63,928 nt of DNA from an uncultured Myxococcales bacterium. Its GTDB lineage: Bacteria; Myxococcota_A; Bradymonadia; UBA4248. A program made the position numbers and the translations under genes. The stretch spans positions 1 to 63,928 of the forward strand of contig CAMCLY010000002.1 in the NCBI GenBank assembly GCA_945875805.1, given 5' to 3'. The notes under the pieces were generated by a model. The model saw only the letters and a list, made by a program, of their open reading frames with translations. It was not told the DNA's origin and ran no database searches. Positions within the stretch are counted from its first letter, which is position 1. Every line of letters begins with the position of its first letter. This document shows positions 3,730-63,862 of this stretch, piece after piece.

Positions 3730-3802
3730 GCTGATGTGGCTCAATTGGCAGAGCACCTGATTTGTAATCAGGGGGTTGGGGGTTCGACTCCCTCCATCAG
3801 CA
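3730..3802 (+). tRNA. tRNA-Thr (anticodon UGU)
   Basis: Cloverleaf read by eye: acceptor GCTGATG/CATCAGC, anticodon stem CCTGA/TCAGG with loop TTTGTAA, T-loop GGTTCGACTCC. No encoded CCA. Confidence 0.9.
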
Positions 3803-3812
3803 ATCGAGTTTT

Positions 3813-3894
3813 GGAGAGGTACCTAAGCGGTCAACAGGGGCGGACTGTAAATCCGTTGGCTCAGCCTTCGTTGGTTCGAATCCAGCCCTCTCCA
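3813..3894 (+). tRNA. tRNA-Tyr (anticodon GUA), copy 1
   Basis: Acceptor GGAGAGG/CCTCTCC, anticodon loop CTGTAAA, long variable arm, T-loop GGTTCGAATCC. Confidence 0.9.
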
Positions 3895-3929
3895 TGGAGT
3901 GAAATTTCAAGAGCGGCGGGTGACGATAT

Positions 3930-4011
3930 GGAGAGGTACCTAAGCGGTCAACAGGGGCGGACTGTAAATCCGTTGGCTCAGCCTTCGTTGGTTCGAATCC
4001 AGCCCTCTCCA
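3930..4011 (+). tRNA. tRNA-Tyr (anticodon GUA), copy 2 (identical to copy 1)
   Basis: 82-nt sequence identical to 3813-3894, separated from it by a 35-nt spacer. Confidence 0.9.
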
Positions 4012-4016
4012 TTTAA

Positions 4017-4089
4017 GCGGGTGTAGCTCAGTTGGTAGAGCAATAGCCTTCCAAGCTATGGGTCGCGAGTTCGAACCTCGTCGCCCGCT
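4017..4089 (+). tRNA. tRNA-Gly (anticodon UCC)
   Basis: Acceptor GCGGGTG/CGCCCGC, anticodon stem ATAGC/GCTAT with loop CTTCCAA, T-loop AGTTCGAACCT. Confidence 0.9.
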
Positions 4090-4094
4090 TTTAT

Positions 4095-4167
4095 GCTTGT
4101 GTAGCTCAGCAGGTAGAGTACTTCCTTGGTAAGGAAGGGGTCACCGGTTCGAATCCGGTCACAAGCT
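4095..4167 (+). tRNA. tRNA-Thr (anticodon GGU)
   Basis: Acceptor GCTTGTG/CACAAGC, anticodon stem CTTCC/GGAAG with loop TTGGTAA, T-loop GGTTCGAATCC. Confidence 0.9.
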
Positions 4168-4257
4168 TTTTTTTTGTTTTGTCGCCTCACGGTGAGGCAA
4201 TTTTGTTTGTGCCATGGGCACACATTTCTTTTCCCCATAAATTGGAGGCGGGCTGCT

Positions 4258-5454
4258 ATGGCCAAGGAAACATTTCATCGCGATAAGCCACATGTGAACA
4301 TCGGAACGATCGGTCACGTCGATCATGGTAAGACGACGCTGACGGCCGCCATTACGACGGTTTTGGCGAAACATAATCCTAACATTCAGGTTATGAAGTT
4401 TGACGATATCGACAAAGCGCCTGAAGAGAAAGAGCGTGGTATTACGATCGCGACGGCTCACGTGGAATATCAGACGGCCAACCGCCACTATGCGCACGTC
4501 GACTGCCCGGGACATGCTGACTACATCAAGAACATGATCACGGGTGCCGCCCAGATGGACGGTGCGATTCTCGTTGTGAGTGCCTATGATGGCCCGATGC
4601 CCCAGACGCGTGAGCACATTCTTCTTGCCCGTCAGGTGGGCGTGCCCTACATCATCGTATATCTGAACAAGGCTGACCTTGTGGATGATGCCGAGCTTTT
4701 GGAACTGGTTGAGATGGAAGTTCGCGAACTTCTTTCGAGCTATGACTTCCCTGGCGACGACACGCCGGTTATCGTGGGTTCTGCTCTCCAGGCGTTGGAA
4801 GGCGTGGACAGCGAATATGGTACGCAGTCGATTGATCGCTTGATGGAGGCTGTGGACACGTACATTCCTACGCCGCAGCGTCCTATTGACAAGCCGTTCT
4901 TGATGCCTGTTGAAGACGTGTTCTCGATTTCGGGTCGTGGTACGGTGGCGACGGGCCGTGTGGAATCCGGCCAGATTCGCGTGAACGATGCGGTAGAAAT
5001 TGTCGGTATGAAAGAAGAGATCGACAAGACGGTCGTCACGGGTGTTGAGATGTTCCGCAAGCTTTTGGAATACGGCGAAGCCGGTGACAACATTGGTTGT
5101 CTGCTCCGTGGTACGAAGAAAGAGGAAATCCGTCGTGGTCAGGTTTTGGCCAAACCGGGTTCGATTCATCCTCACAAGTCCTTCAAGGGTCAGGTTTACG
5201 TTCTGTCCAAAGAAGAGGGTGGCCGTCACACGTTCTTCCGCAATGGTTATCGTCCTCAGTTCTATTTCCGCACGACGGACGTCACGGGTGTCGTCACGTT
5301 GGAAGGGATTGAGATGGTTATGCCTGGCGACAATGTCGATCTGAAGGTTGACCTGATTGAACCGATCGCCATGGACGAAGGTCTCCGCTTCTCGATTCGT
5401 GAAGGTGGCCGCACGGTGGGAGCCGGCGTCGTCTCGACGATTCTTGACAAGTAA
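4258..5454 (+). CDS. tuf: Elongation factor Tu
   Basis: [36 protein letters not shown] and NKAD G-motifs. GGAGG RBS at 4244-4248. The ORF-track start at 4126 overlaps the tRNA and is rejected. Confidence 0.98.
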
Positions 5455-5500
5455 GCAGAGTGACAAAAGTTTCACGGCATAGGGATATGCCGTGAAATGT

Positions 5501-5573
5501 AGGGGCGTAGCTCAGTTGGTAGAGCAACGGCCTCCAAAGCCGTGGGCCGAGGGTTCGAATCCTTCCACCCCTG
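5501..5573 (+). tRNA. tRNA-Trp (anticodon CCA)
   Basis: AGGGGCGTAGCTCAGTTGGTAGAGCA start, anticodon stem ACGGC/GCCGT with loop CTCCAAA, T-loop GGTTCGAATCC. One C-A mismatch in the acceptor stem. Confidence 0.88.
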
Positions 5574-5580
5574 TTGAGCA

Positions 5581-24940: not shown

Positions 24941-27928
24941 TTAGTTGACCTGCGAGTGCTCGCTGTAGCCGGGGACGATGATGTAGACCTGGCGAGTACC
25001 GAAAACGAGGCCGGTGGTGGGGTTAATGACGTCGATATACGCCATGAATGTCTGGGCTTCGGCCTTGTAGGGGGCGCAGGTGTCGTTTTGAGCGTAGACG
25101 GTGAAGGCCAGATTGGCGCCTTCGACGCGGGAAGAAGCGGTGCCGGTGGCGAAGTTGACGAAGCCGTTGTTGTATTCGGGGGTGACGCCGTCGATTTCGA
25201 TTTGGGCGGGTGTGGCGGTGGGGTTACATGAGGCTTCGGGTTCCTGCGCCGGGGCGATGTAGCGCGTGGCGACGACCTGTTTGATGAAACAGCTCGTGTT
25301 GTTGCCGTTCTCCATTTCGAGTCCGCGGACGCGGGTGGCGACTTCGTAGGTACCGTATTTGACGAGGGCGTCGATGCCGTCGACGACGGTGTCACTCAGG
25401 GCGGTGCCGCTGGTGAGGCCGTAACTGAGGATGCACTGATTGTCGATGGGATCGACGCTTCCTTCGGCGGTGGTGACGGTGCAGCATTTATTTTCGCCGC
25501 ATTTCCAGTTGGAGGCGTCTTTTTTGAAGGCGCAGGCGGGGACGAGGGCGGAGGTTTCGAGGGAGGAGTTGCGCAGGACGGGGTGCTGTGCGCCGGCGGT
25601 GATGCCTTCCTTGTCCTTGTTCTCCTTGGCTTCGGTGGCGCTTCGTCGGTAGACGGTCAGCAGGCGGATGCCGTGTTCCTGATAGGCTTTGTGGACGTCG
25701 GCGTCGGTGTGGGCGTTGAGGATGTAGTTGGCGTCGTAGATGTATTCCTGGAGGGTTGCCGCGACGGTTTTGGCGGTGGAGGAACCGTGGGAGGGGGCGT
25801 CGGTGATGTGGACGACGACGGGGAGGGTGCCGTTTCGGAAACTGACGCCGCCCCAGTGTGCGTCGTCATTGGTGATGATGGGCATCCGGACGAGTTTGCC
25901 GGCGGTGGGTGACGTCAGGTCTTTGCCCTCGTAGTAGGCCGTCTGGGTTTCGTTGGTCATCTGGTCGGCCATGGCGATTTGGTAGAGCGACTCGTAACCG
26001 GATTCGGGGTAGTCGTAACCGTCGGTGAGTCGGAAGTTTTTGACGGCGTCGTTGAGGGCGTTTTTGGACGACGTGATTTTGCTCAGCAGTTGCCATGGGT
26101 TGTCTTTGGTAAATGGTTCGCGATCAACGGCCGCACCGTATCGGGCGGTGCCGTTGGCATTGCTGACGGGGAAGTCGGCGAATGCGGAGATGGCGAAGGC
26201 CCAGTCGCTGACGCGCTCCTGGACGCCGGGGATGATGGTGGTCTCAAGTTTTTGCGTGACGTTGGTGATTTCGTTTTGCATCGATCCGGTGACGTCGAGG
26301 TTGATGACGACGTCGAGCTTGGAGACGGCGGGTTTGAAGAGGAGTTCGTCGTCCTTCTGGTCGCCTTCATAGGGGAGTTCAAAGTAGAAGTCGAAGACGC
26401 CGTTGACGCCGAGTCCTGCGTTGCAGATGAGGTCTTCGGGGCGCGAAATGGTGGCGCGCAGGCCCGTGATGGGATCGTCAAACGAGCACCAGTCCTGGTG
26501 ATCCGTCTTGCAATGTTCGATGGCGTATTGGGCGGCGGCATGTTCGGCCGCATCGGCATAGCCATCGTTGTCGGTATTTTTGGTCAGCATGGCGGAATGC
26601 GCGTTCAGGGAGGTGAGCTTGCCGGAGGCGTCGACCACGGAGTAGTCGGTGCAGTCGATGTGGAACTCTATGCCGTCGGAAAGCCCGTCGCCGTCGCAGT
26701 CGCTTGAGACGATGCACTTGGTCGTGTTTCCGTCTTCGATGTAGACCAGTCCATATTCGTCTTTGTCGGGAATCGTGTCGTTGTCGGAATCGAGGTCGTA
26801 ACGGTCGATGGTGCCGTCGCCATCGGTATCCAGGGGGGATTCTTCGTTATCGGGGACGGTGTCGCCGTCGGAGTCGGTATCCATGTAGTCGGGGACGGTG
26901 TCTCCGTCGGTGTCCCACGGGGATTCTGGGGTGCCGGCGGCGCATGGCGATTCACCGCACATGCGGCCGGGCACGTACCCGGCCTCGGTGGTCAGCGTGA
27001 GGCCGACGATTTCGATCGTGTCCGAAACCGCGTCATTGTCGTTGTCGTCGTCGATATAGTCGGGGAGGCCGTCGTCGTCGGTGTCGAGGCAGGTGTATTT
27101 GGGATGTCCATTTTCGAGCACGGGGTTGCCGTCTTCGCCGAGCACCTGGGTGCACTGGCCTTCGGCGGAATCGGGAATTCCGTTGTTATCGGAATCGGTG
27201 TCGATAAAATCATAGAGGCCGTCGTCGTCGCTGTCGGCGGGGGTCAGAAGGGTCAGGCGCGCCTCGACGTAATCGGGAATGGTGTCATTGTCGGAGTCCT
27301 CGTCCTGGCAGTTGGGAAGGGTATCATCGTCGGAATCGACGTCGCAACGATCGTAATAATCGGAGATGCCGTCGCCATCGGTGTCGTTGGATTTGAGTTT
27401 GTCGTCCTCCGTTTTGGCGATACACACGCCGCCCTCGCATTCGCCCACGATGCACACCGTGTCGGCGGCCGAACACGACTGCCCGACGACCGCGCCGATT
27501 TTGCACGTCTTGGTTTCCGTGATGCAGCTGTATCCCGTGATGCACGGCGTGGACGCGCACGATTCGTTGGCGCCGGCCGTTATCGTGCACTTGCCGTTGA
27601 GGCATGTGCCCTGTTTGCACGCCTTATCTGACTGGCAATTCCCGCCCAAGTCGGATTTCTGTTCCTCGCTGCTGAGCTGGCACGTTCCGTTGATGCACGA
27701 ACCTTCGGTGCAAATCGTTTTGATGCCGCACGCGTCGTCAAGCGAGACCTTGAGAAAACACGTGCCTGCATTGCACAAATATCCCTCAATGCAGGGATTG
27801 TTTTCGTCACACACCGATGGATTGGGATCCTCCGGGCCGTCCGAAGAACTGTCGTCCGAACAGGCCCCCGCAAATGCCAGGGCGGTAATCATGAGGCTTA
27901 GCAAACCGTATTTCGATGGATTTTTCAT
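24941..27928 (-). CDS. Giant lipoprotein: Cys-rich repeats, thrombospondin type-3 Ca-binding repeats and a VWA-like domain
   Basis: Lipobox ALAFAGAC. N-terminal CxxGxC-type repeats. Many DxDxDGxxDxxD repeats (DTDGDGISDYYD, DTDDDGLPDYID, DTDSDGDTVPD). Then VVINLDVTGSM (a MIDAS-like DxTGS) and a large C-terminal region. AGGAG RBS. Confidence 0.85.
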   Translation of the reverse strand: MKNPSKYGLLSLMITALAFAGACSDDSSSDGPEDPNPSVCDENNPCIEGYLCNAGTCFLKVSLDDACGIKTICTEGSCINGTCQLSSEEQKSDLGGNCQSDKACKQGTCLNGKCTITAGANESCASTPCITGYSCITETKTCKIGAVVGQSCSAADTVCIVGECEGGVCIAKTEDDKLKSNDTDGDGISDYYDRCDVDSDDDTLPNCQDEDSDNDTIPDYVEARLTLLTPADSDDDGLYDFIDTDSDNNGIPDSAEGQCTQVLGEDGNPVLENGHPKYTCLDTDDDGLPDYIDDDNDNDAVSDTIEIVGLTLTTEAGYVPGRMCGESPCAAGTPESPWDTDGDTVPDYMDTDSDGDTVPDNEESPLDTDGDGTIDRYDLDSDNDTIPDKDEYGLVYIEDGNTTKCIVSSDCDGDGLSDGIEFHIDCTDYSVVDASGKLTSLNAHSAMLTKNTDNDGYADAAEHAAAQYAIEHCKTDHQDWCSFDDPITGLRATISRPEDLICNAGLGVNGVFDFYFELPYEGDQKDDELLFKPAVSKLDVVINLDVTGSMQNEITNVTQKLETTIIPGVQERVSDWAFAISAFADFPVSNANGTARYGAAVDREPFTKDNPWQLLSKITSSKNALNDAVKNFRLTDGYDYPESGYESLYQIAMADQMTNETQTAYYEGKDLTSPTAGKLVRMPIITNDDAHWGGVSFRNGTLPVVVHITDAPSHGSSTAKTVAATLQEYIYDANYILNAHTDADVHKAYQEHGIRLLTVYRRSATEAKENKDKEGITAGAQHPVLRNSSLETSALVPACAFKKDASNWKCGENKCCTVTTAEGSVDPIDNQCILSYGLTSGTALSDTVVDGIDALVKYGTYEVATRVRGLEMENGNNTSCFIKQVVATRYIAPAQEPEASCNPTATPAQIEIDGVTPEYNNGFVNFATGTASSRVEGANLAFTVYAQNDTCAPYKAEAQTFMAYIDVINPTTGLVFGTRQVYIIVPGYSEHSQVN

Positions 27929-28207
27929 GGGCGAACTCCTGAATAAAATGACACAACGCATGCCGCTCCATAACCACGGCACCACGTCAGCCGAACCTTA
28001 CAAAAATTTTGCATTATACTGTGACAAGCGTTCCAACTCAACCGCTGTCGCAGGATTCTGGATTTCTATGTTCCGCTTTATGCCTTGATTTGAGCCCGAA
28101 GAATAGCGTAGAAGCATCGCATTTTTCCGTGCCCTGCGGCGTTTTTTGCCGTGGCGGCGTTTCGTGCCAAAGACGGTCTTTTCTTCTTTTTTCGGATGTG
28201 CATCGCC

Positions 28208-38400: not shown

Positions 38401-38778
38401 GGATCCGTCACCATTACCCCGGATCTCCTCATCATGCAGGCCCTCCCCAACGACAAGCTCGCCATCGCCGAGGAAGCCGGCTACTGGATCGCCTTTGACA
38501 CCGAAATCACCGAAGATCTCCGCATCGAGGCGTTCATGCGCGACGCCATGCGCAAGTTCCAGCTCACGCGCAAGGAAATCGGCCTCGAAATCGAGGACCG
38601 CATCACCATGACCTGGCAGTCCGACTCCCCGACCCTCGTCGCCATGTTCGACACCTGGGGCGCCAAAATGGCCGAAGGTCTCCTCTGCCTCCGCCTCGAA
38701 CGCTCCCACGACAGACAGCCCGTCGAGGCCAAGTTTGAAGGCGAGGAAATGACGTTTAAAATTGTCAAGGCATCGTGA
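35455..38778 (+). CDS. ileS: Isoleucine--tRNA ligase
   Basis: 1107 aa with a HIGH-type PMGVHHAWG, a KMSKS-type QMHKSTGN, an editing domain and Zn-type CDDC...CPHCGG. The ORF-track start at 35209 lies in repeat DNA and is rejected. Confidence 0.97.
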   Translation: MTQKKASYQKVDTWIDIVKNEHEILDFWKSSDIFNKLRAQNKGGKKWSFLDGPMTANNPMGVHHAWGRSLKDALQRYHAMNGCELRYQNGFDCQGLWVEVEVEKEHGFASKQEIREYGIDRFVQDCKDRVHKCARRITDQSIRLGYWMDWDNSYFTMSEENNYTIWSFLKKCHEKGLIYRGHDVMPWSGRSGSAYSQMEVIEGRKYIASLSLFVKFPLIDPGHEGENLVAWTTTPWTLSCNIAAAVNADLDYIKIRSNQDGEIYIFAAENLKFQRLEKQYKENWIEGVPKLKTLDQIFKERGGYEIVGTVKGADLVGLRYRGPFDELEAQQIAGGYPFTDAKIKESAIDAHRVIDGGRDERGNAVVTIGEGTGIVHIAPGCGDVDHVLGVKLGLPMLAPLDEAACFLPKFGFLTGMNATKDDTRQAVVAELKKKNILIAQELYPHVYPHCWRTGEELVFRMVDEWYINMNWRDRIIKVAKDIEWIPAFGKDREVEWLTNMRDWMISKKRFWGLALPIWVCDDCKKFDVIGGRDELKARCIEGWDAFEGHTPHKPWIDKVVLQCPHCGGKMHRVEDVGNPWLDAGIVPYSTVKYNSDRDYWKQWMPADLVLECFPGQFRNWFYSLLAMSTMMEDTKPFKTLLGHALVRDEHGQQMHKSTGNAIWFDDAAEQAGADTMRWLYARQDPEVNLNFGYGPLREVRGGFINTLWNTYAFFTNYARLENWTPGEVPTPFADRTLFDQWILTELQLLIKECRAGFESVDVRKAALAIEKFVENLSNWYVRHNRKRFWKIEENDTIKARAAFETLFECLETLTRLVAPILPFLAETMYQNLVRGARDNARESVHLESYPEADDAKIDMLLLDEMHAVEAFTRLALSAREAQKLKIRQPLSKMILGPADDIGLKAARRFQDILKDDLNVKAVDILDPGTPSPLDYEIKLNFRAAGPKFGKQIKEVTAAIAANHAEILKKARAGEPVELPVSTGSVTITPDLLIMQALPNDKLAIAEEAGYWIAFDTEITEDLRIEAFMRDAMRKFQLTRKEIGLEIEDRITMTWQSDSPTLVAMFDTWGAKMAEGLLCLRLERSHDRQPVEAKFEGEEMTFKIVKAS

Positions 38779-38968
38779 GTTTGGGTCGGCCCGGCTGTTC
38801 GGCAAGGCCGAACACGCCGGGGCCACCGCGCCTGTGCCTTCGGCACACGGCGCGGGCGCCTCGCTATGTGCTCGGGGGCCGTCGCCGGCACCCCTGCGCG
38901 CATACGCGAGGCGCGACATCCTTCTGCGGGGAAAAGCGAGGAATCACCACGACAGGAAATTTGAAAAA

Positions 38969-39982
38969 ATGATTGGCAGTGTCACATTGAAAAACTACGG
39001 TCCGATTCGTTCGCTTTTCTGGGAACATATGGGACAAATGAACTTGGTTTTGGGAACGAACGGGCAGGGGAAGACTTTTTTGTTAAAAGCCCTCTATACC
39101 GCGACGCGTACGTTGGAGGAATACAAACGGGGGAATGATAATAGAAATGTTTCCGACATTTTAGCAGATAAATTGTATTGGACATTTCAGGTGGATAGGC
39201 TCGGGGAACTTGTGACAAAGGGAGAGGCCGATCCGCTTTCTTTTAAGATGAATGTGGACAACCGGGAATTTGCTTATAGATTTGGAAAAGACACAACGAA
39301 ACAGATTTCAATTCTTGAAAACGCGGTTGCACCAAGGGCGAATAATTCAATATTTATTCCGGCAAAAGAGGTCTTGTCATTGCATCAAATTATTCTCAAG
39401 TCCAGAGAGCAAGATAAGGTATTTGGATTTGACGATACATATTATGATCTTGCTCGGGCCATTCGGCAAATGCCGCAGCGCGGGAAAAATTACAAAGCAT
39501 TTTCGGAGTCAAGAAAGAAACTTGAAAATTTGCTTGGTGGTAAGGTGGAGTTTGTTGAAGGGAATGGGCGCTGGCAATTTAAGGCTCACAATCAAAGATA
39601 TTCGATCGGGGCCACATCGGAAGGCATTAAGAAAATTTCAATTTTGGATACTTTGCTGAGCAATCGATATTTGGATAATAAATCTATTGTTTTTATTGAT
39701 GAACCGGAATCGGCGCTTCATCCGACGGCAATATCAAGTTTTTTGGATATTGTTGCGGAATTGTCAAAATGCGGAATACAATTCTTTTTTGCGACGCACT
39801 CCTATTTTGTTGTAAAGAAATTATATTTATTAGCACTGGAGACTGGGCAGAGCGTTCCCGTGATTTCTGCTGATGGAGATGGATGGAATATAAACGATTT
39901 GCAGGACGGCTTGCCTGAAAATCCAATCATTGACGAATCTGTCCGACTTTATGAACGGGAGGTGGAATTATCATTAAAATGA
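38969..39982 (+). CDS. ABC-type (AAA_15/AAA_21-like) ATPase with no TM or substrate domain
   Basis: 337 aa. Walker A GTNGQGKT near the N-terminus, signature-like SEGIKKI, Walker B IVFIDEPESALHP and H-loop FFATHS. Low-GC gene. The stop overlaps the start of the next gene (ATGA). Confidence 0.85.
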   Translation: MIGSVTLKNYGPIRSLFWEHMGQMNLVLGTNGQGKTFLLKALYTATRTLEEYKRGNDNRNVSDILADKLYWTFQVDRLGELVTKGEADPLSFKMNVDNREFAYRFGKDTTKQISILENAVAPRANNSIFIPAKEVLSLHQIILKSREQDKVFGFDDTYYDLARAIRQMPQRGKNYKAFSESRKKLENLLGGKVEFVEGNGRWQFKAHNQRYSIGATSEGIKKISILDTLLSNRYLDNKSIVFIDEPESALHPTAISSFLDIVAELSKCGIQFFFATHSYFVVKKLYLLALETGQSVPVISADGDGWNINDLQDGLPENPIIDESVRLYEREVELSLK

Positions 39983-40515
39983 TGAAACCCATTGTTGAGT
40001 CTGGAATGCCGTTTGGACCTTATGATGAAAGTGAATGCTTTTATGTCGAAAAAAGCGATATTTATCAACGTGTGCGTGAAGGTGTTTCCATGGTGGAGTT
40101 TTGTTTGCTCAGAAAACAGAAAGGAAAACCTGTAGTTTGGTTTGTTGAGGCAAAATCTAGCGCGCCCAATCCCAATGGGACTAAATTTGACGATTACACG
40201 AATCAAATAAAAGATAAATTCGTGAACGCACTTGCGCTTGTCATGTCCATGATTCTTAAAAGACATTCAGTGCATGGTAATGAATTTCCCGACACTTTTA
40301 AATCATTGTCATTGTCTGGATTGGAAGTCAGATTTGTTTTGGTGGTTCGTGAACATCCTGAGTCATGGTTGCCACCTCTTGCGGATGCTTTAAAACGCCG
40401 ATTAAATGCGACGCTCAAAGTATGGGCATTCAGTCCTAATTCGGTTGTTGTGCTTAATGACAAAATGGCGTTAAAATATGGTCTGATTCGAACGTTTGTG
40501 CCAGACGCTGTGTGA
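39979..40515 (+). CDS. Small protein with a PD-(D/E)xK nuclease-like motif, translationally coupled to the ATPase
   Basis: 178 aa. E40 (SMVEFCLL) then E57-A-K59 (VWFVEAKSS) 17 residues later fits the restriction-endonuclease-like core pattern. I recognise no named family. Confidence 0.6.
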   Translation: MMKPIVESGMPFGPYDESECFYVEKSDIYQRVREGVSMVEFCLLRKQKGKPVVWFVEAKSSAPNPNGTKFDDYTNQIKDKFVNALALVMSMILKRHSVHGNEFPDTFKSLSLSGLEVRFVLVVREHPESWLPPLADALKRRLNATLKVWAFSPNSVVVLNDKMALKYGLIRTFVPDAV

Positions 40516-40678
40516 GTCTGAAAATATCCATTGGCGAGGATGGGACTGATAGAATGTCTGCCAAAATCCTCGACGTGATGTCATAGGTGTTGTACAAAGC
40601 CCCCGGATGTTATTTTGCCTTTGCGGCAAATGGCTTTTTGTCAGAAGGCGATGGCCAGTTTATAGCAGGAATGACGTC

Positions 40679-41137
40679 ATGAGAGACAGCAGACATTGGC
40701 GCGTATGGGTGACTTTGATGGGGTTGCTCTTGGGGGGGGCCCTTTGCGGATGCTTGGGGAAGACGGAGGATGATGAAAAAACTCAACTAGAGCAGGAGAA
40801 TTTCCCAGACCCAAAAGTCAGGTTAAGTGGGCCTTTATTTTCGGATAGACTCGACAAACGCATCATCCATAATATCGTTCGAGAACATAAAGATGAACTC
40901 ATGGCATGTTACGCCAAGGCGCTTAAAAAAGACCAGAAATTGGCGGGAAGTCTTACGATTGAATGGAAGATTACTTCGGATGGCATGACGAAAGATGTCG
41001 AGATATATGAAAGTAAGTTTCATGGCAATCCCATCGAAGATTGTGTCATGAATTCGATTAAAGAGTGGAAATTTATATCTCCAGAAGATGGTGAAGATGC
41101 AAGTGTTATGTATCTTTTTACGTTTTTGGTGGAATGA
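40679..41137 (+). CDS. Lipoprotein with an AgmX/PglI-type (TonB-C-like) C-terminal domain
   Basis: Lipobox GALCGC. IIHNIVREHKDELMACYAKALKKDQKLAGSLTIEWKITSDGMTKDVEIYESKF.NPIEDCVMNSIKEWKF matches the CY...G.v...f.I..dG.v...Cv...i..w.F pattern. Confidence 0.7.
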   Translation: MRDSRHWRVWVTLMGLLLGGALCGCLGKTEDDEKTQLEQENFPDPKVRLSGPLFSDRLDKRIIHNIVREHKDELMACYAKALKKDQKLAGSLTIEWKITSDGMTKDVEIYESKFHGNPIEDCVMNSIKEWKFISPEDGEDASVMYLFTFLVE

Positions 41138-41336
41138 GGTTTCGTGAACCACTGGAGAGAGCGCCACGTTGTCCCTGTAAGAGGGGGGTGAGAGGGGGGG
41201 GCTGATGTGAGAACAGTCTAAAAATTGGAAATTTCTGTCTCCCCAAAAAGGGGGGATGTTTTGAGGTGTGTTAAACGTCATCCCAAAGCGGCATTGGATG
41301 TGGTGTCGCTTCGGGGTATTTTCTTGGAAATTGCGG

Positions 41337-42875
41337 ATGGAAGGAGCAAAAGTGTCGTTGGGGGCTACGGTGAAATCGCTGTCGCCTTCGTTTTGGGTTG
41401 CCAATGTCATGGAAATTGTGGAGCGCATGGCATGGTATGGATTTTATGCGCTCTCGTCGATTTATATGTGTGATGCGGTGTCGGATGGCGGTCTTGGGTT
41501 GACGTCGTCGGATCGCGGTATCATTCAGGGGGCGGTATCCTTTTTGATTTATTTGTTCCCGTTTGTCACGGGGGCGCTTGGGGATCGGTACGGGTATAAA
41601 AAGATGCTCCTGATCTCGTATCTCATTTTGGCGCCATCGTATTTTCTTCTCGGGCTGGCGGAGACGATGCCGACATTTTTTGCGGCATTTTTGTGTGTAG
41701 GGATTGGTGCCTCGATATTCAAGCCGCTCGTCGTCGGTACCGTGGGCCGTTGTTCGGATGAGAAGAATGGTTCGCTGGCCTTTGGCATTTTTTACATGAT
41801 GGTCAACATTGGCGGATTTGTCGGTCCATTGATAGCGACGACGCTCCGTTCTCAGGGATGGGAATACGTCTTTTATGCGTCGTCTGCATGGATATTGCTC
41901 AACATTCCCATTTTGCTCTTGTTTTATAAAGAGCCTCCGCGGGATGCGAAAGCGCAGGATGCGAAATCGTTTAAACAGGTCATGCAGGAAGTGCTTGAGG
42001 TGATTGGGAATGGACGATTCTTTGCGATGTTCTTTGGTACACTCGTGATATTTGTCATGGGGTGCAAATGGTTTTCGATCGGCGAGGTGTCTTTGGTGGC
42101 GCTGGGGTGGATAGCCTTGAATGTCGTGATGGATGGGATATTCCGTAAAACGCATAAACTGAGTTGGTGTATGCGTGTCGGGCATAAACGGTTTTTATTA
42201 TTTTTGCTTTTGTTGTCGAGCTTTTGGGTTGCGTACAATCAATTGTTTATTACACTTCCGCTTTATATTGGCGATTCCATCGATACAAAACCCGTGATGG
42301 ATGTCCTCGTGAGTATTGCGGGCACGCTTGGGTTTGACACGGGCAGTGACAGCGCTCTGGCGATGGTGTTTATGGACAAAACCGGTGGCTTGAAGCCGGA
42401 ACACTTCGTCAATATCAATGCGTTTTGTATTATATGTTTTCAGGTTATCGTTTCGATTCTCAATGAACGGATTAAACCGCTTATCGGCATCATGATCGGC
42501 ATTATGTTGACAGCGGTCAGTTTCATCCTGATTGGCCTTGGCGCGAATGCATGGCTTATCGTCATTGGCGTGGCCATGTTTAGTTTTGGGGAAATGATGG
42601 CATCGCCGAGAGCGAAAGAATACACTGCGCACGCCGTGGCCCCCAAGGACAAGGTCGGCATGTACATGGGCTATTACATGTGGAGTAATGCCATCGGTTC
42701 ATTGTTTGGCGGGTTGCTTTCGGGAATGTTGTATAAACAGATTGCCCAGGAGATGCACAATCCCACGTTGATGTGGTTGATTTTTGCGGGGTTGTCGCTC
42801 GTATGTTGCGGACTCATTTATGGGTATCACGTCCGGGTTGGCCGGAATGTCGCGGCCGAACGTGCGGTGGACTGA
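41337..42875 (+). CDS. POT/PTR2-family (MFS) peptide transporter
   Basis: EIVERMAWYGFYALSSIYM and FPFVTGALGDRYGYKKMLLISYL are PTR2-type motifs, with about 12-14 TM helices. The start could be the ATG at 41337 or the GTG at 41352 behind AAGGAG. Confidence 0.85.
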   Translation: MEGAKVSLGATVKSLSPSFWVANVMEIVERMAWYGFYALSSIYMCDAVSDGGLGLTSSDRGIIQGAVSFLIYLFPFVTGALGDRYGYKKMLLISYLILAPSYFLLGLAETMPTFFAAFLCVGIGASIFKPLVVGTVGRCSDEKNGSLAFGIFYMMVNIGGFVGPLIATTLRSQGWEYVFYASSAWILLNIPILLLFYKEPPRDAKAQDAKSFKQVMQEVLEVIGNGRFFAMFFGTLVIFVMGCKWFSIGEVSLVALGWIALNVVMDGIFRKTHKLSWCMRVGHKRFLLFLLLLSSFWVAYNQLFITLPLYIGDSIDTKPVMDVLVSIAGTLGFDTGSDSALAMVFMDKTGGLKPEHFVNINAFCIICFQVIVSILNERIKPLIGIMIGIMLTAVSFILIGLGANAWLIVIGVAMFSFGEMMASPRAKEYTAHAVAPKDKVGMYMGYYMWSNAIGSLFGGLLSGMLYKQIAQEMHNPTLMWLIFAGLSLVCCGLIYGYHVRVGRNVAAERAVD

Positions 42876-55874: not shown

Positions 55875-57977
55875 TCAGTGGGTTTGTACGCTGTAGACGA
55901 AGCTGGTTTTGGGGAGTCTGAGCATGCGTTCCCGGATGAGGCTGAATGGAATGGCGGAGCCCTGGACGTGTTCTTTTTGGAGTGCGTTGAGCGCGGCAGC
56001 GTCGCCTTTTGCTTTGATCTGTGCGATTTGTGTCATGATGTGGTCGACGCATTTAGGCATTTTGTCCATGTGTATGACAAAGGCGCCCTTGTCGGTGCCG
56101 TTGCTTGCGGTGGCGTCAGGGTCGAAGGAGAGTGCGCCGTCTTTGAGCATCATGCCGATCTGGATGGCGGCGAGTTGTGAGTATGGCTGGATGCGTCCGG
56201 AGGCGTCTGTCATGCCTCTTGAGATGTGTCCGAAAGCCCAGTAGACGGAATCGGCGTAGCTTTTGTGGGCGAGTTCCTGGGTAATGACGCCTTTTTCGAC
56301 GAGGAATGGGAGGTACCAGAGTGCGGCGGTTTGCGCTTTAAATTCCTCGGCGAGAGAAGCCATGCTACCGCCGAAGATGGCGTCGTCGACTTTTCCGTTG
56401 ACTTTGTATTCGTGTGCGGGTCCGAGGTTGTGAGCGGCTTCATGCAGGATGGTACTGAGGAGTCCTGGTCCGGATGCGTCTTTGAGGAGCTCCATATCGG
56501 CGTCGGTGAAGAGGGAGGAAGCGAGGGTCTGTCGGTCGCGCAGGCTGTCTGGGTCGGTGTAGAGGTTGCTCATGGCGACGGTGCGTCCGCGTCCTTCGTT
56601 GGCGACGGGACCCCAGTTTGGGAGGGACTGTCCGATGGTGGCGCCGAAGGCGTCGCGGTCGTCGCCGCTATTGGTGACGATGTCGATGAAGTCGGGGAGA
56701 TGGAAACTGACGGTTCTGGCTGTGTAGGGTTTTCCGGCAATTTTGGCGAGATTTTGTTCCATTTCCTGCTGCAACGGGGTGAGTTTTTCCTGCCATGAGA
56801 GGGCGTCCGGATTGATGCGTGCGAAGGTCATGTGGAATCCGGCTTTTCTTGAGCAAGGGTCCCAGTAGACTTCGTCCGGGGCGACGCGGACGTACCATTT
56901 GGAGTTGGTGGAGTTCATGGAGGCCCATGCCTCGTCGGCGGGGTTCCAGTCGTTGGTGAGGAAGGCTTCGGCGGCGACGTTGAGGTAGTTCATCAGGGCG
57001 ACTTCGTCTTCGTTTCCGATGAGGGTTTTGGCGGCATTTTTGAGGAGGTTGCTGATGGTGCGCATTTCATCGCCGAAGGCGCGGTTGTAGGGCACGGCCT
57101 TGAGGGCGCCGCCTTCCTCGACGACGACGGTGAATGGGGTGAGGAGCGTTTCGGCGTCGGGGCGTGCACTGATCTTGTCGCAAAAATCTTTGGAGCGCTG
57201 GAGTGAAGCGGGGTAAATGCCGACCGGGGTGAAGGCATCTCCGGCGAGTGCGCGGCATTCGGGGTCGTTTTTCATTTTTGGGCTTTGTGGCATGACGCCC
57301 CAGTTTCTGCGCGCCATGCTTTGGGAGATGATGTCGTCGGCGGGGATGCGCGCCATGATTTTGTCGAGTCCGACTTGTCTTGCGTAGAGGGTGTCGATGG
57401 CTTCTCCGACCTGAAGCATGGCGCGTACGAAATCGCGTTCGTTTTCGTCAGAAAAGTCGGAGGCGACGAGGGTGATGGCGGCCTGATCGAGTTCCTGTGC
57501 AACTTTTTCGCGTCGGGTGCGTTCGGCCGGGTCCTCGATGGGGGTGCCCAGGGTTGGGTCTTTCATGACATCGACCATGAGGGCGTAGGCGTCTCTGAAT
57601 GCCTTGGTGAAGTTTCCGTCGGCGTCTTTCCAGACGAACGAAGCGGACGTGGGGTAGAAGTTGAGGGTTCTCAGGACTTCGGGGCGCACGGTTTTGCTGG
57701 GGGTGTCTTCATAGGTCCAGAAGATGGGGAGATTGAGTCTTTGTGCGGCGTGGTTGAAGTCGTCCCGGGAGAGCTGTGAGAGGGTTTCGTCGACGGCGGG
57801 TGCCTCAGGAGCGGCCTCAGGAGCGGCCTCAGGAGCGGCCGGTGCGGGCGCCTCCGGTGCGGCGGCGGCCGGTGTGGGCTGGGGTTGTGTGTTCACGGGT
57901 TCTTCCTTTTTGCAGGCCGGGGCGCATGTCATGAGGACGAGCGCGAGGACAGAGGCGAGTTTTTGGGTGTGAGTCAT
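55875..57977 (-). CDS. Zinc metallopeptidase lipoprotein, M49 (DPP III)-like with a pentapeptide HEAAH motif
   Basis: Lipobox LVLMTCAPAC with an Ala/Pro/Glu linker. HEAAHNLGP is followed about 29 residues later by EEFKAQ, resembling the HExxH/EExxAx pair of atypical DPP III enzymes. AAGGAG RBS. The ORF-track start at 58502 is rejected. Confidence 0.7.
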   Translation of the reverse strand: MTHTQKLASVLALVLMTCAPACKKEEPVNTQPQPTPAAAAPEAPAPAAPEAAPEAAPEAPAVDETLSQLSRDDFNHAAQRLNLPIFWTYEDTPSKTVRPEVLRTLNFYPTSASFVWKDADGNFTKAFRDAYALMVDVMKDPTLGTPIEDPAERTRREKVAQELDQAAITLVASDFSDENERDFVRAMLQVGEAIDTLYARQVGLDKIMARIPADDIISQSMARRNWGVMPQSPKMKNDPECRALAGDAFTPVGIYPASLQRSKDFCDKISARPDAETLLTPFTVVVEEGGALKAVPYNRAFGDEMRTISNLLKNAAKTLIGNEDEVALMNYLNVAAEAFLTNDWNPADEAWASMNSTNSKWYVRVAPDEVYWDPCSRKAGFHMTFARINPDALSWQEKLTPLQQEMEQNLAKIAGKPYTARTVSFHLPDFIDIVTNSGDDRDAFGATIGQSLPNWGPVANEGRGRTVAMSNLYTDPDSLRDRQTLASSLFTDADMELLKDASGPGLLSTILHEAAHNLGPAHEYKVNGKVDDAIFGGSMASLAEEFKAQTAALWYLPFLVEKGVITQELAHKSYADSVYWAFGHISRGMTDASGRIQPYSQLAAIQIGMMLKDGALSFDPDATASNGTDKGAFVIHMDKMPKCVDHIMTQIAQIKAKGDAAALNALQKEHVQGSAIPFSLIRERMLRLPKTSFVYSVQTH

Positions 57978-58036
57978 GGAAATCTCCTTGTGAGAAGGGG
58001 GATAGGGTGTGGGCACGTGAGGTGTTGGGCGTTTTT

Positions 58037-58600
58037 TTACCGTTTGGGCGGTTTCCAATGCGGATCGTTGGGGGAAATGAGGGTTCCGATGGGGGGAGGA
58101 GGGGGGAGTTTTCGGATCATCTGGACGACGAAACGCCCCGAACCGGCGGCATAGAAGACGCGGTATTTCCGGAAACCGAGTTTGGTAAAACATCGCTGTG
58201 CGCGTGTGTTGTTGGCATAGGTTTCGAGGACGATGAGTGCGAAGCCCTCGCGGGCCAGGAAGTCGAGAAAGAGCCTCAGGGCTTCGCTGCCGTATCCGTG
58301 GCTCCAGTGTTGTGGGCTGGCGATGACGATGCCCAGGGTGCACTGACATGTTTTTTTGACGAAGTCGCGGGCGGTAATCGTCCCGATGGGCTCTCCGTCC
58401 AGAACGATGATGCGTTCGATGATCTCGCCCATGCCCTGAGCCAGGAGCCTTCCGCCCGCGTATTCTTCGAGGGGGATGGTGTGGGGTGCATCGTCGGCCC
58501 AATAGACGACGCCCGGTTCAAAACGTTGCGCATAGAAGTGCGCGTAGTCGTCGAATTCGGGCGTTTTGAGGGTGATTTTTCTTTGGGGTGCTTTGGTCAC
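58037..58600 (-). CDS. GNAT-family N-acetyltransferase
   Basis: IVIASPQHWSHGYGSEALRLFLDFLAREGFALIVLETYANNTRAQRCFTKLGF is a GNAT motif A/B region. The preferred start is the GTG at 58600, one nt after the metG stop; the ATG at 58651 would overlap metG. Confidence 0.78.
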   Translation of the reverse strand: MTKAPQRKITLKTPEFDDYAHFYAQRFEPGVVYWADDAPHTIPLEEYAGGRLLAQGMGEIIERIIVLDGEPIGTITARDFVKKTCQCTLGIVIASPQHWSHGYGSEALRLFLDFLAREGFALIVLETYANNTRAQRCFTKLGFRKYRVFYAAGSGRFVVQMIRKLPPPPPIGTLISPNDPHWKPPKR

Positions 58601-61753: not shown

Positions 61754-61861
61754 GGTGGGGGCTTGTCAGAAAAAAAATGTGATTACGCTTGCACGCCGGT
61801 GATTTGGCGGAAATCCCGTCGAAGTGTCAATTATAGTCAATTATAAATGTGAGAGGGAATC

Positions 61862-63862
61862 ATGGCTCAGGAACGCTTTGAATTTCGTTCGGAAACTAAG
61901 GAATTGCTTCAACTGATGGCGAAATCGCTCTACTCGAGCAAGGACGTCTTTTTGCGCGAACTCGTGTCGAACGCTTCGGATGCGCTCGATCGTCGCCGTT
62001 TTGAGGCGGTGACCGACCCGTCCAAACTGAGCGCGGATGAGACGCTCGAAATCCGGATTCATGCGGACAAGGACGCCAAAACGCTCACGATTGAGGACAA
62101 CGGCGACGGGATGACTCGCGACGACATGATCGCCAACCTGGGGACGATTGCGCATTCTGGGACCAAGGCGTTTGTCGAAAAACTCAAGTCTGCCGAAAAC
62201 GCCGATCAGGCTAACTCGCTCATCGGGCAGTTCGGCGTTGGGTTCTATTCGGCCTTTATCGTGTCGGACGATGTCACCGTGACGAGCCGCCGCGTCGGGC
62301 AGGATAAAGCCTACACCTTCCGTTCCTCCGGCGATGGTTCCTACACGATCGAGGACGCCCAGAAAGATTCGTGCGGCACGACAATCGTCCTCAAACTGCG
62401 TCCCGAGGACCTCGAAGATCAGCTGTCCGATTTTACCGACGCCTACGTCATCAAAAACACGATTAAGAAATACAGCGATTTCGTCCAGTACCCGGTCATG
62501 GTCGAGTGCGAGACGCAGCACCACCGCGAGGGCGTCGAGGAAGCCGAGGGGCACGACGCGTCCACATGCCACGATCCCACCCACATGGTGACCGAAAAAG
62601 TGTGGGAACAGGCCAACTCCATGAAGGCGATATGGCTCAAAAAAGCCGACGAGGTCACGGACGAGGAATACAACGAGTTCTACAAAAACATCACGTTCGA
62701 CTGGTCGGATCCGATGTTCCGCCTCAATCTCAAGGCCGAAGGGACCGTCGAATATCGCGGCCTGGTCTTCATTCCGGCTCGCGCGCCCTATGACATGAAC
62801 TATCGCGACGCCAAATTCGGTCTGCGCCTCCATGCCCAGCACGTCCTCATCATGGAAAAATGCGCCGAACTCCTCCCCGATTACCTCCGCTTCGTCAAGG
62901 GGGTCATCGATTCCTCCGACCTCAGCCTCAACATCTCCCGCGAGATTCTCCAGAAAGACCGCAGCATCTCGACCATCCGCAAGCACATTGTCAAAAAAGT
63001 CCTCGATCTCCTCGACGACGCCGCCCAAAACGACAAGGACAAATACAACACCTTCTGGGAACAGTACTCGCGCTACATCAAAGAAGGCGCGGCCAGCGAT
63101 TACGACAACAAGGATCGCCTCCTCAAACTCATGCGTTTCGTGACGAGCACCACCGTCGCCGAGGACGAAAAATCTGAGTCCAAAAAATCGTCGACGACCT
63201 CCTTCGCCGATTACATCGCCCGCATGCCCTCCGATCAGGATGCCATCTATGCCATCGCCGGCGAGTCCCTCGAAGTCGTCCGAAACAGCCCGCACCTTGA
63301 GGCGTTCCAGCAGAAAGGATACGAAGTTCTCTACCTCACCGATCCCTACGACGAAATTCTGTTCTCACAGATCCCCGAAGTCCAAGGCAAAAAAATCACC
63401 TTCATCGGTCGCGGCGAGGTAGAACTCGGAAGCGAAGAGGAAAAGAAGGAAAAACGCGAAAAACTCGAGAGCCAGAAAAAGGATTTCGACGCCCTCCTGC
63501 AGAAGCTCCAGTCCTCCCTTTCCAACGACGTCGAATCCGTGCGCCTCTCCACTCGCCTTACCACCTCCCCGGCCTGCCTCGTGGGCCGCGACGGCGACGT
63601 CAGCCCCCACCTCCAGCGCCTCCTCTCCAAAATGGGCAACGGCAACGGCCTCCCCGAGTCCAAGCGCATCCTCGAAATCAACCCCAACCACCCCCTGCTC
63701 GAAAAACTCCAGTCGCGCTTTGCCGCCAACGCTGACGACGCCATCATCCCCAAATACGCCCAGCTTCTCTATGGTCAGTCCCTGCTCGCCGAAGGTTCCC
63801 CACTTCCCGATCCCGTCGAGTACACCAAACTCGTCACCGAACTCATGGTCGAAACGCTTTAG
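61862..63862 (+). CDS. htpG: Molecular chaperone HtpG (Hsp90 family)
   Basis: FRSETKELLQLMAKSLYSSKDVFLRELVSNASDALD, IGQFGVGFYSAF and SREILQ motifs. 666 aa. Confidence 0.97.
   Translation: MAQERFEFRSETKELLQLMAKSLYSSKDVFLRELVSNASDALDRRRFEAVTDPSKLSADETLEIRIHADKDAKTLTIEDNGDGMTRDDMIANLGTIAHSGTKAFVEKLKSAENADQANSLIGQFGVGFYSAFIVSDDVTVTSRRVGQDKAYTFRSSGDGSYTIEDAQKDSCGTTIVLKLRPEDLEDQLSDFTDAYVIKNTIKKYSDFVQYPVMVECETQHHREGVEEAEGHDASTCHDPTHMVTEKVWEQANSMKAIWLKKADEVTDEEYNEFYKNITFDWSDPMFRLNLKAEGTVEYRGLVFIPARAPYDMNYRDAKFGLRLHAQHVLIMEKCAELLPDYLRFVKGVIDSSDLSLNISREILQKDRSISTIRKHIVKKVLDLLDDAAQNDKDKYNTFWEQYSRYIKEGAASDYDNKDRLLKLMRFVTSTTVAEDEKSESKKSSTTSFADYIARMPSDQDAIYAIAGESLEVVRNSPHLEAFQQKGYEVLYLTDPYDEILFSQIPEVQGKKITFIGRGEVELGSEEEKKEKREKLESQKKDFDALLQKLQSSLSNDVESVRLSTRLTTSPACLVGRDGDVSPHLQRLLSKMGNGNGLPESKRILEINPNHPLLEKLQSRFAANADDAIIPKYAQLLYGQSLLAEGSPLPDPVEYTKLVTELMVETL

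Follow-up and report, generated by a model that had tools for sequence, protein, structure and literature searches.

What is encoded by the two coupled genes at positions 38969 to 40515 of contig CAMCLY010000002.1 from an uncultured Myxococcales bacterium, and does the pair belong to a system that already has a name? The stretch of 63,928 nucleotides analysed here (the window) carries at this point an ABC-type ATPase gene followed by a gene for a small protein, and the original prediction took the two for a candidate undescribed, possibly unclassified defence module. That part of the prediction fails. By every feature tested the window pair is HEC-02, and it is already known: it has a name, hidden Markov models (HMMs) for exactly the window subfamily, and an experimentally validated relative. 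The locus is very likely a two-gene HEC-02-family anti-phage defence operon on a horizontally acquired cassette of 2.3 kb. The features on which this reading is built are the following:

38969..39982, + strand: HEC-02A-type ABC ATPase, 337 aa, ATG start (open reading frame (ORF) and PADLOC model PDLC04214)
39979..40515, + strand: HEC-02B-type small PD-(D/E)xK-like nuclease, 178 aa, ATG start (ORF and PADLOC model PDLC04221)
39979..39982, + strand: ATGA stop/start overlap, read directly as the TGA of the ATPase gene over the ATG of the small gene
40614..40640, + strand: terminator-like hairpin with T-run, about 100 nt past the small gene (consensus scan only)

Assignment to HEC-02 and conserved residues

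Both window proteins were scanned against PADLOC-DB v2, Pfam and NCBIfam. The ATPase matches the HEC-02A model PDLC04214 with E=6.1e-158, residues 1-336 falling on model positions 1-337 of 338, and the small protein matches the HEC-02B model PDLC04221 with E=9e-64, residues 1-170 falling on model positions 1-169 of 171. Other named systems in PADLOC match the ATPase far more weakly (AriA 3.5e-19, NsnB 1e-17, PD-T4-4_A 6e-17, AbiLi 2e-15 and PtuA 1e-14). In Pfam, the ATPase matches AAA_21 (1e-18) and AAA_15 (5e-16). Scans of the small protein against Pfam and NCBIfam came back empty, and NCBIfam offered a model for neither protein. The HEC-02 gene layout is also present in the window, where the ATPase gene comes first and its neighbour follows directly on the same strand.

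Payne, Hughes, Fineran and Jackson reported HEC-02 among nine 'Hma-embedded candidates' and described it as combining an ABC ATPase and a NERD-like PD-(D/E)xK partner that carries a (D/E/Q)xK motif (bioRxiv 10.1101/2024.01.29.577857). In E. coli K-12 MG1655 deltaRM, a HEC-02 representative lowered plaque formation by several coliphages by orders of magnitude. The tested pair comes from Dickeya dianthicola NCPPB 3534 (WP_024108366.1, 342 aa, and WP_024108365.1, 169 aa), and its protection needs both genes (10.1101/2024.01.29.577857).

We compared the window pair with this Dickeya pair. The ATPases share 27% identity over 301 residues (E=4e-33). For the small proteins, an hhalign alignment of the window family profile with the Dickeya protein gave E=4.6e-5 and a probability of 68.6% over 156 collinear columns, with E7, E24, E40 (D in Dickeya) and E57-x-K59 in register. 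On the window's own PADLOC models, the Dickeya ATPase reaches 4e-60 (PDLC04214) and the Dickeya small protein 8.9e-6 (PDLC04221). Judged by these alignments, the link between the small proteins is weak but consistent. Both pairs consist of an ATPase of about 340 aa and then a PD-(D/E)xK-type protein of about 170 aa with a (D/E)...ExK arrangement, and pairs related to the window pair are, like HEC-02, embedded in other defence systems. They differ in subfamily: the window pair falls to PDLC04214/PDLC04221, and the Dickeya pair used in the phage tests scores best on the seed models PDLC04146/PDLC04145. This places the window pair inside the named family, in a sister subfamily of the tested pair.

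Several labels attached to these proteins call for care. The PADLOC-DB seed models PDLC04145 and PDLC04146 carry swapped labels, while in the expanded models A is the ATPase and B the small protein. The Dickeya ATPase scores best on 'HEC-02B' PDLC04146 (E=8e-183) and the Dickeya small protein on 'HEC-02A' PDLC04145 (E=1e-85); the window ATPase also matches PDLC04146, labelled 'HEC-02B', at 1.6e-42. Furthermore, the Dickeya small protein WP_024108365.1 carries the RefSeq name 'cysteinyl-tRNA synthetase', which looks like an annotation error for a PD-(D/E)xK-like protein of 169 aa. A literature search on the names HEC02 and HEC_02 returned irrelevant papers only. Public records label the two genes 'AAA family ATPase' and 'hypothetical protein', and the HEC-02 label can replace both; beyond annotation, the significance of the assignment is slight.

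The motifs named in the original prediction for the 337-aa ATPase (Walker A, signature-like, Walker B and H-loop) are confirmed in the translation, with GTNGQGKT at residues 29-36, SEGIKKI at 217-223, IVFIDEPESALHP at 240-252 and ATHS at 275-278. They supply K35 of Walker A, the signature-like segment T216-K222, D244/E245 of Walker B, the D-loop ALHP and H277 of the H-loop. In alignments of 71 and 41 homologs, G29, N31, G34, K35, T36, T216, E218, G219, K221, K222, D244, E245, A249-L-H-P252 and H277 are invariant or nearly so. The AlphaFold2 (AF2) model of the ATPase has a predicted local distance difference test score (pLDDT) of 84.4. The nearest solved folds are PtuA (from Septu and from a retron), the retron Eco8 ATPase and the heads of Rad50 and SMC, with E-values of about 1e-10 to 1e-9 and a query TM-score (TMq) of about 0.5, and the protein therefore has an ABC-type head and not an AAA+ fold. 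A sequence search of the PDB with the ATPase gave no meaningful match. An extended ORF of 406 aa from a TTG at 38762 was considered as the ATPase gene and rejected, since the alignments of all homologs begin at the first residue of the 337-aa form. The family is large, with 2922 relatives at E<=1e-10 in a database clustered at 90%.

In the small protein, the predicted arrangement E40...E57-x-K59 is invariant in 41 homologs, as are E7, S8, F12, E24, A58 and K80, and the N-terminal hairpin carries an invariant ESGMxFGP. The AF2 model (pLDDT 94.8, predicted TM-score 0.90) places a beta-hairpin at residues 5-12, a short helix just after E24, a strand starting just past E40 and a strand holding E57-A-K59, followed by alternating helices and strands. 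The core of PD-(D/E)xK proteins runs from a helix with a Glu to a strand with an acidic residue and a strand with ExK, and the order in the predicted model is that of this core. A Foldseek search of the PDB with the model found the FokI cleavage domain as best match (2fok_A, probability 0.99, E=1.8e-3, TMq 0.40), followed by HamA of Hachiman, LmuA of Lamassu, MUS81, BsmI, EcoO109I, the nuclease domains of Avs3/Avs4 and the Shedu nuclease. All of these are restriction-endonuclease-fold proteins and none is a strong match, so the nuclease-like fold expected earlier is seen at modest scores. The catalytic residues of FokI, which we take to be D450, D467 and K469, show a spacing of 17 residues, the same as from E40 to E57 in the small protein. 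Foldseek against viral structures returned only weak restriction-endonuclease-like matches, none with E <1e-3. A PDB sequence search with the small protein gave no meaningful match, and a Pfam search over 41 aligned family members found no nuclease family, only scattered chance matches. The small-protein family comprises 1270 representatives at 50% identity and E<=1e-3, and the well-conserved, widespread subfamily is a reasonable target for structural work on the HEC-02 mechanism.

The overlap of the ATPase TGA with the small-gene ATG, noted in the original prediction, is real and recurrent. A start codon that gives the same 4-nt overlap (-3 from the last stop base) is found in 73 of 77 related loci, being the only candidate in 63 of them, and the annotation of a Comamonas plasmid shows it too. 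In most public assemblies the small protein is instead called at 169 aa from M10 (40006), 24 nt past the ATPase stop. We rejected this start because the invariant E7 and S8 would be lost; conservation in the 41 homologs and the 73 loci with the overlap back the 178-aa start. The 169-aa call also conceals the gene overlap. Translational coupling at this site would mean that ATPase and nuclease are co-produced in a fixed ratio, and the hairpin at 40614-40640, to judge from its sequence, is likely the end of the two-gene operon.

The absence of PARIS, Septu, Gabija and AbiL, already proposed from the sequence by eye, is borne out, because the defining effectors of these systems (and of OLD) are missing. 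The pair resembles PARIS in being a two-gene combination of an ABC-ATPase sensor and a nuclease effector, with the weak match to AriA given above. It differs in that its effector is PD-(D/E)xK and not TOPRIM/DUF4435, and the scores of the window ATPase favour HEC-02A over AriA by about 140 orders of magnitude; neither PADLOC nor Pfam found a TOPRIM or AriB match in the partner. Septu and the retron PtuA-PtuB pairs share the combination of an ATPase with a small nuclease and supply the nearest solved ATPase folds (8eea, 8sux, 9e91 and 9n6c). However, PtuB is an HNH nuclease, the PtuA HMM matches of the window ATPase are partial and weak (25 bits against a cutoff of 500 in NCBIfam), and PADLOC and Pfam scans of the partner gave neither HNH nor PtuB. 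For Gabija and OLD, the 337-aa ATPase lacks a TOPRIM domain at its C-terminus, its matches to Old and GajA span the ATPase motifs only, and no helicase gene adjoins. For AbiL, the AbiLi matches are weak and the partner shows no match to AbiLii (RloB-like).

Related loci and the variable cassette

To see how the pair is organised elsewhere, one genome per species was scanned, which yielded 211 relatives of the small protein; the locus counts given here cover the best 80. These span Gammaproteobacteria, Betaproteobacteria, Desulfobacterota, Cyanobacteria, Verrucomicrobiota, Lentisphaeria, Acidobacteriota, Chloroflexota, Bacteroidota, Fibrobacter, Planctomycetota and Synergistota. The two genes co-occur almost throughout: an ATPase homolog with 55-71% identity lies immediately upstream on the same strand in 79 of the 80 loci, and the last locus has no upstream room.

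The surroundings are variable. Beyond the two genes, no neighbouring family recurs in more than 13 loci, and there is hence no conserved housekeeping context; those neighbours that do recur are defence genes. Type I restriction-modification (RM) genes adjoin or enclose the pair in 15 loci, in 10 of which it stands between HsdS and HsdR. BREX genes (PglX, PglZ, BrxL) are found in 7 further loci, with the pair between PglX and PglZ, which brings the pairs inside or adjacent to type I RM or BREX to 22 of 80. An ATPase of HEC-01A type is the neighbour in 5 loci. The identities of these defence neighbours rest on PADLOC E-values from 0 to 1e-83. OLD-type ABC ATPases paired with PD-(D/E)xK nucleases within BREX have been catalogued computationally (PMC12839542), and the window family, given its 7 BREX loci, is of the same general class as these dyads. 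The idea that the pair is typically borne by phages, satellites or plasmids was dropped, because tblastn with the small protein found it on 1 of 72,556 plasmids and in no phage record. The plasmid-borne pair, from Comamonas, lies beside a recombinase, IS26 and toxin-antitoxin (TA) genes.

In the window, the pair lies within a segment that is exchanged between closely related strains:

38914..41200, no strand: variable low-GC cassette (ATPase, nuclease and third small gene), 2287 bp (blastn against sibling contigs)
40679..41137, + strand: third cassette gene, small AgmX/PglI C-terminal (TonB_C-like) domain protein (NCBIfam NF033768)

The compositional islet reported earlier is confirmed, with a GC content of 0.38-0.43 over 38950-40600 compared to 0.58-0.65 in ileS. 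At 0.425, compared to 0.563 on average over the 64-kb window, the 2287-bp cassette has the lowest GC content of any 2.3-kb stretch, and only 0.26% of equal-sized stretches are as low. At third codon positions, the GC content (GC3) is 0.41 in the ATPase gene and 0.36 in the small-protein gene, as opposed to 0.79 in ileS. The low-GC region nevertheless extends beyond 38969-40515, taking in the third small gene and a transporter of the major facilitator superfamily (MFS), to about 42875.

Sibling contigs (L089, L093, L099 and L105) were found via their identical IleS and GspF proteins, and in all four the slot between the flanks holds a single gene of 345 aa. The blastn alignments break sharply at 38913/38914 and 41200/41201, with 99.1-99.8% identity outside these breakpoints and none inside. 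The 345-aa protein is Abi_2 by Pfam (E=1.6e-43) and AbiD by PADLOC (E=4e-54), and its cassette measures 1127 bp at a GC content of 0.385 (L089:11460-12586, corresponding to window 38914-41200). AbiD/AbiF thus occupies exactly the same chromosomal slot, but this single protein is unrelated to the pair and resembles neither of its genes in sequence. Because of this shared slot we regard AbiD as a functional alternative at the site, and since the AbiD cassette stands in for the HEC-02 cassette in siblings, the gap between ileS and the MFS gene is a small, sharply bounded hotspot for defence genes in which the cargo alternates. The predicted horizontal acquisition is upheld, and the composition of the cassette is foreign.

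As for how the cassettes were exchanged, no repeat of 7 nt or longer is common to both junction regions as a target-site duplication or att-like repeat, and no integrase, tRNA or Rfam element was found near the cassette. Homologous recombination between the flanks would explain the swap most simply. The exact ATPase protein occurs in at least 90 metagenome-assembly blocks, human and pig gut included, as well as in an NCBI metagenome-assembled genome whose source labels it 'Bradymonadia bacterium'. The gene order is the same in all of these: ileS, ATPase, nuclease, small gene, MFS transporter, GspF, GspE. Outside this region the window carries housekeeping genes, among them those for ClpB, an ABC-F protein, a DsbA-like protein, a Ser/Thr kinase, methionyl-tRNA synthetase, a secretin, GspE/F, fumarase and LysM amidases, so that the pair forms an isolated islet and not part of a large defence island. 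With cassettes of 2.3 kb (HEC-02) and 1.1 kb (AbiD) alternating between identical flanks, the site is a clean natural minimal defence hotspot in a gut bacterium and could serve strain-level studies of phage resistance in gut metagenomes.

Proposed mechanism and rival explanations

How the pair might act can be outlined from better-studied systems. Made in a fixed ratio through translational coupling, ATPase and nuclease would form a complex in which the ABC ATPase heads dimerise on ATP and their variable inserts sense a phage cue. The ATPase oligomer would keep the PD-(D/E)xK nuclease, with E40, E57 and K59 as putative catalytic residues and E24 helping, inactive until that cue arrives. Once released, the nuclease would cut nucleic acid, most likely DNA, and phage replication would halt, possibly at the cost of the cell. 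The gating of the nuclease by an ATPase sensor is modelled here on PARIS (AriA/AriB) and on the PtuA/PtuB pairs of Septu and retrons, with PARIS as the likely model for nuclease sequestration and release. In the homolog alignments, the residues for ATP binding, hydrolysis and nuclease activity are all under strong constraint. The frequent embedding in RM and BREX loci suggests that the phage cue may be linked to anti-restriction. The original prediction of an ATPase-sensor/nuclease-effector module against phages stands as far as function goes, while its gating mechanism is argued by analogy.

Several observations weigh against the assignment to HEC-02 defence. The protection data come from the Dickeya representative, which is distant from the window subfamily, and BLASTP detects no similarity between the window small protein and its Dickeya counterpart. 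Solved nucleases match the fold of the small protein at modest scores, none of them with E below 1e-3 in Foldseek against the PDB. Pfam NERD (PF08378) is absent at E<=10 from the window small protein and 40 homologs, and Dickeya HEC-02B does not match it either. Because neither a family member nor the Dickeya protein matches Pfam NERD, we call the small protein PD-(D/E)xK-like and not NERD; the NERD label of Payne et al. rests on structural similarity. Complex formation, the trigger, the nuclease substrate and the decision between abortive and direct immunity are proposed by analogy with other systems. Finally, no RM, BREX or other defence gene neighbours the pair in the window.

Among the rival explanations, one is a narrower version of the defence reading and not an alternative to defence. 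In this PARIS-like guard, the ATPase would sense anti-restriction proteins (Ocr-like DNA mimics or similar), or the failure of RM or BREX, and release a back-up suicidal nuclease. The 22 related pairs in or beside type I RM or BREX operons, the discovery of HEC-02 embedded in Hma systems (10.1101/2024.01.29.577857) and the published view that OLD-ABC and nuclease dyads within BREX act as back-up when phages counter the first defence (PMC12839542) all speak for such a role. However, the window pair and most of the 80 loci stand alone, with no RM or BREX nearby, and the Dickeya pair protected a strain that lacks restriction systems, K-12 MG1655 deltaRM, which argues that this pair needs no partner system. 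We consider a dedicated restriction guard unlikely. There is a smaller chance still that the window subfamily departs from Dickeya HEC-02 in its trigger or its substrate (for example RNA/tRNA), or that the AgmX/PglI-domain protein is a third component. A different trigger or substrate is conceivable because the ATPase is only 27% identical, the nuclease is unrecognisable by BLAST and the ESGMxFGP hairpin is invariant; a third component with the AgmX/PglI domain would, if true, link envelope events to a cytoplasmic ATPase-nuclease pair.

Two further explanations dispense with defence altogether. An addiction module of toxin-antitoxin type, with the nuclease as toxin and the ATPase as its neutraliser, would stabilise the DNA that carries it and have no real anti-phage role in this host. 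The Pfam name of AAA_21, which points to a context of AbiEii/type IV TA toxins, would fit it, as would the tight coupling of the two genes and the Comamonas plasmid on which a homologous pair keeps company with a recombinase, IS26 and TA genes. Against this, the small protein was met on that single plasmid and on no phage, the repeated embedding in RM and BREX loci together with the allelic replacement by AbiD indicates defence, and the Dickeya relative yields measurable phage protection, so that an addiction module seems very improbable. A housekeeping pair for DNA repair or chromosome maintenance, built from a RecF/RecN/SMC-like ATPase and a structure-specific nuclease, deserves hardly any credence. 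The ATPase fold does resemble the Rad50 and SMC heads, and there are weak SMC_N and RecF matches, but these score far under their cutoffs. Moreover, the pair is spread patchily across phyla and has a foreign composition (GC3 of 0.36-0.41 versus 0.79), and siblings with identical flanking proteins do without it and carry AbiD instead. We thus retain the reading of the locus as a HEC-02-family defence operon.

Neighbouring features of the window

The third cassette gene is assigned by NF033768 with E=5.3e-23 and 81 bits against a cutoff of 40, and its Pfam TonB_C match is sub-threshold. Its product has a hydrophobic, signal-peptide-like N-terminus, and the AgmX/PglI C-terminal domain is of a type typical of myxobacteria. 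The start of the gene is uncertain among 40607, 40679 and 40900, and public calls give 78, 152 or 176 aa. PADLOC returned no match for it, and a homolog adjoins the pair in 0 of the 80 related loci; the gene is probably outside the defence system.

Just beyond the right boundary, a transporter of the MFS/POT family (41297-42875, + strand) is present in both cassette variants. Its GC3 of 0.395 compares to 0.76-0.79 in ileS and gspF, and the region of foreign composition is therefore about 4 kb long, larger than the islet first described, and possibly an older acquisition. A weak direct repeat of 33 nt in two copies with 76% identity lies astride the boundary at 41200/41201. The copy at 41059-41091 belongs to the 3' end of the third cassette gene, that at 41219-41251 to the conserved flank, and either chance or a recombination scar may account for them.

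The left boundary is marked by a structured segment:

38788..38913, + strand: three consecutive GC-rich hairpins after the ileS stop (RNA fold and junction alignment)

RNA folding of 38776-38970 gave a minimum free energy of -113.4 kcal/mol (z = -6.6 against shuffles). The hairpins are kept in both cassette variants, the left breakpoint falls at their 3' end, and their sequence has no second copy within the window. Their role may be that of a terminator stack or of a boundary for recombination.

A second variable spot beside the first is found between the MFS and gspF genes, where one strain variant carries an extra insertion of about 3.9 kb (contig L100:9425-13145). It encodes proteins of 257 aa and 768 aa with weak or faint Sel1 and Dickkopf-like matches, and two of its short stretches are 80-82% identical to the third cassette gene (window 40612-40769 and 40849-40913). 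Elsewhere in the window, a Pfam scan at E<=1e-5 gave no match for three long candidate ORFs on the minus strand (24941-27985, 55875-58502 and 61841-63295; 1014, 875 and 484 aa). A cluster of six tRNA genes (Thr-TGT, Tyr-GTA twice, Gly-TCC, Thr-GGT and Trp-CCA) lies on the plus strand at 3730-5574, a long way from the cassette and unrelated to it.

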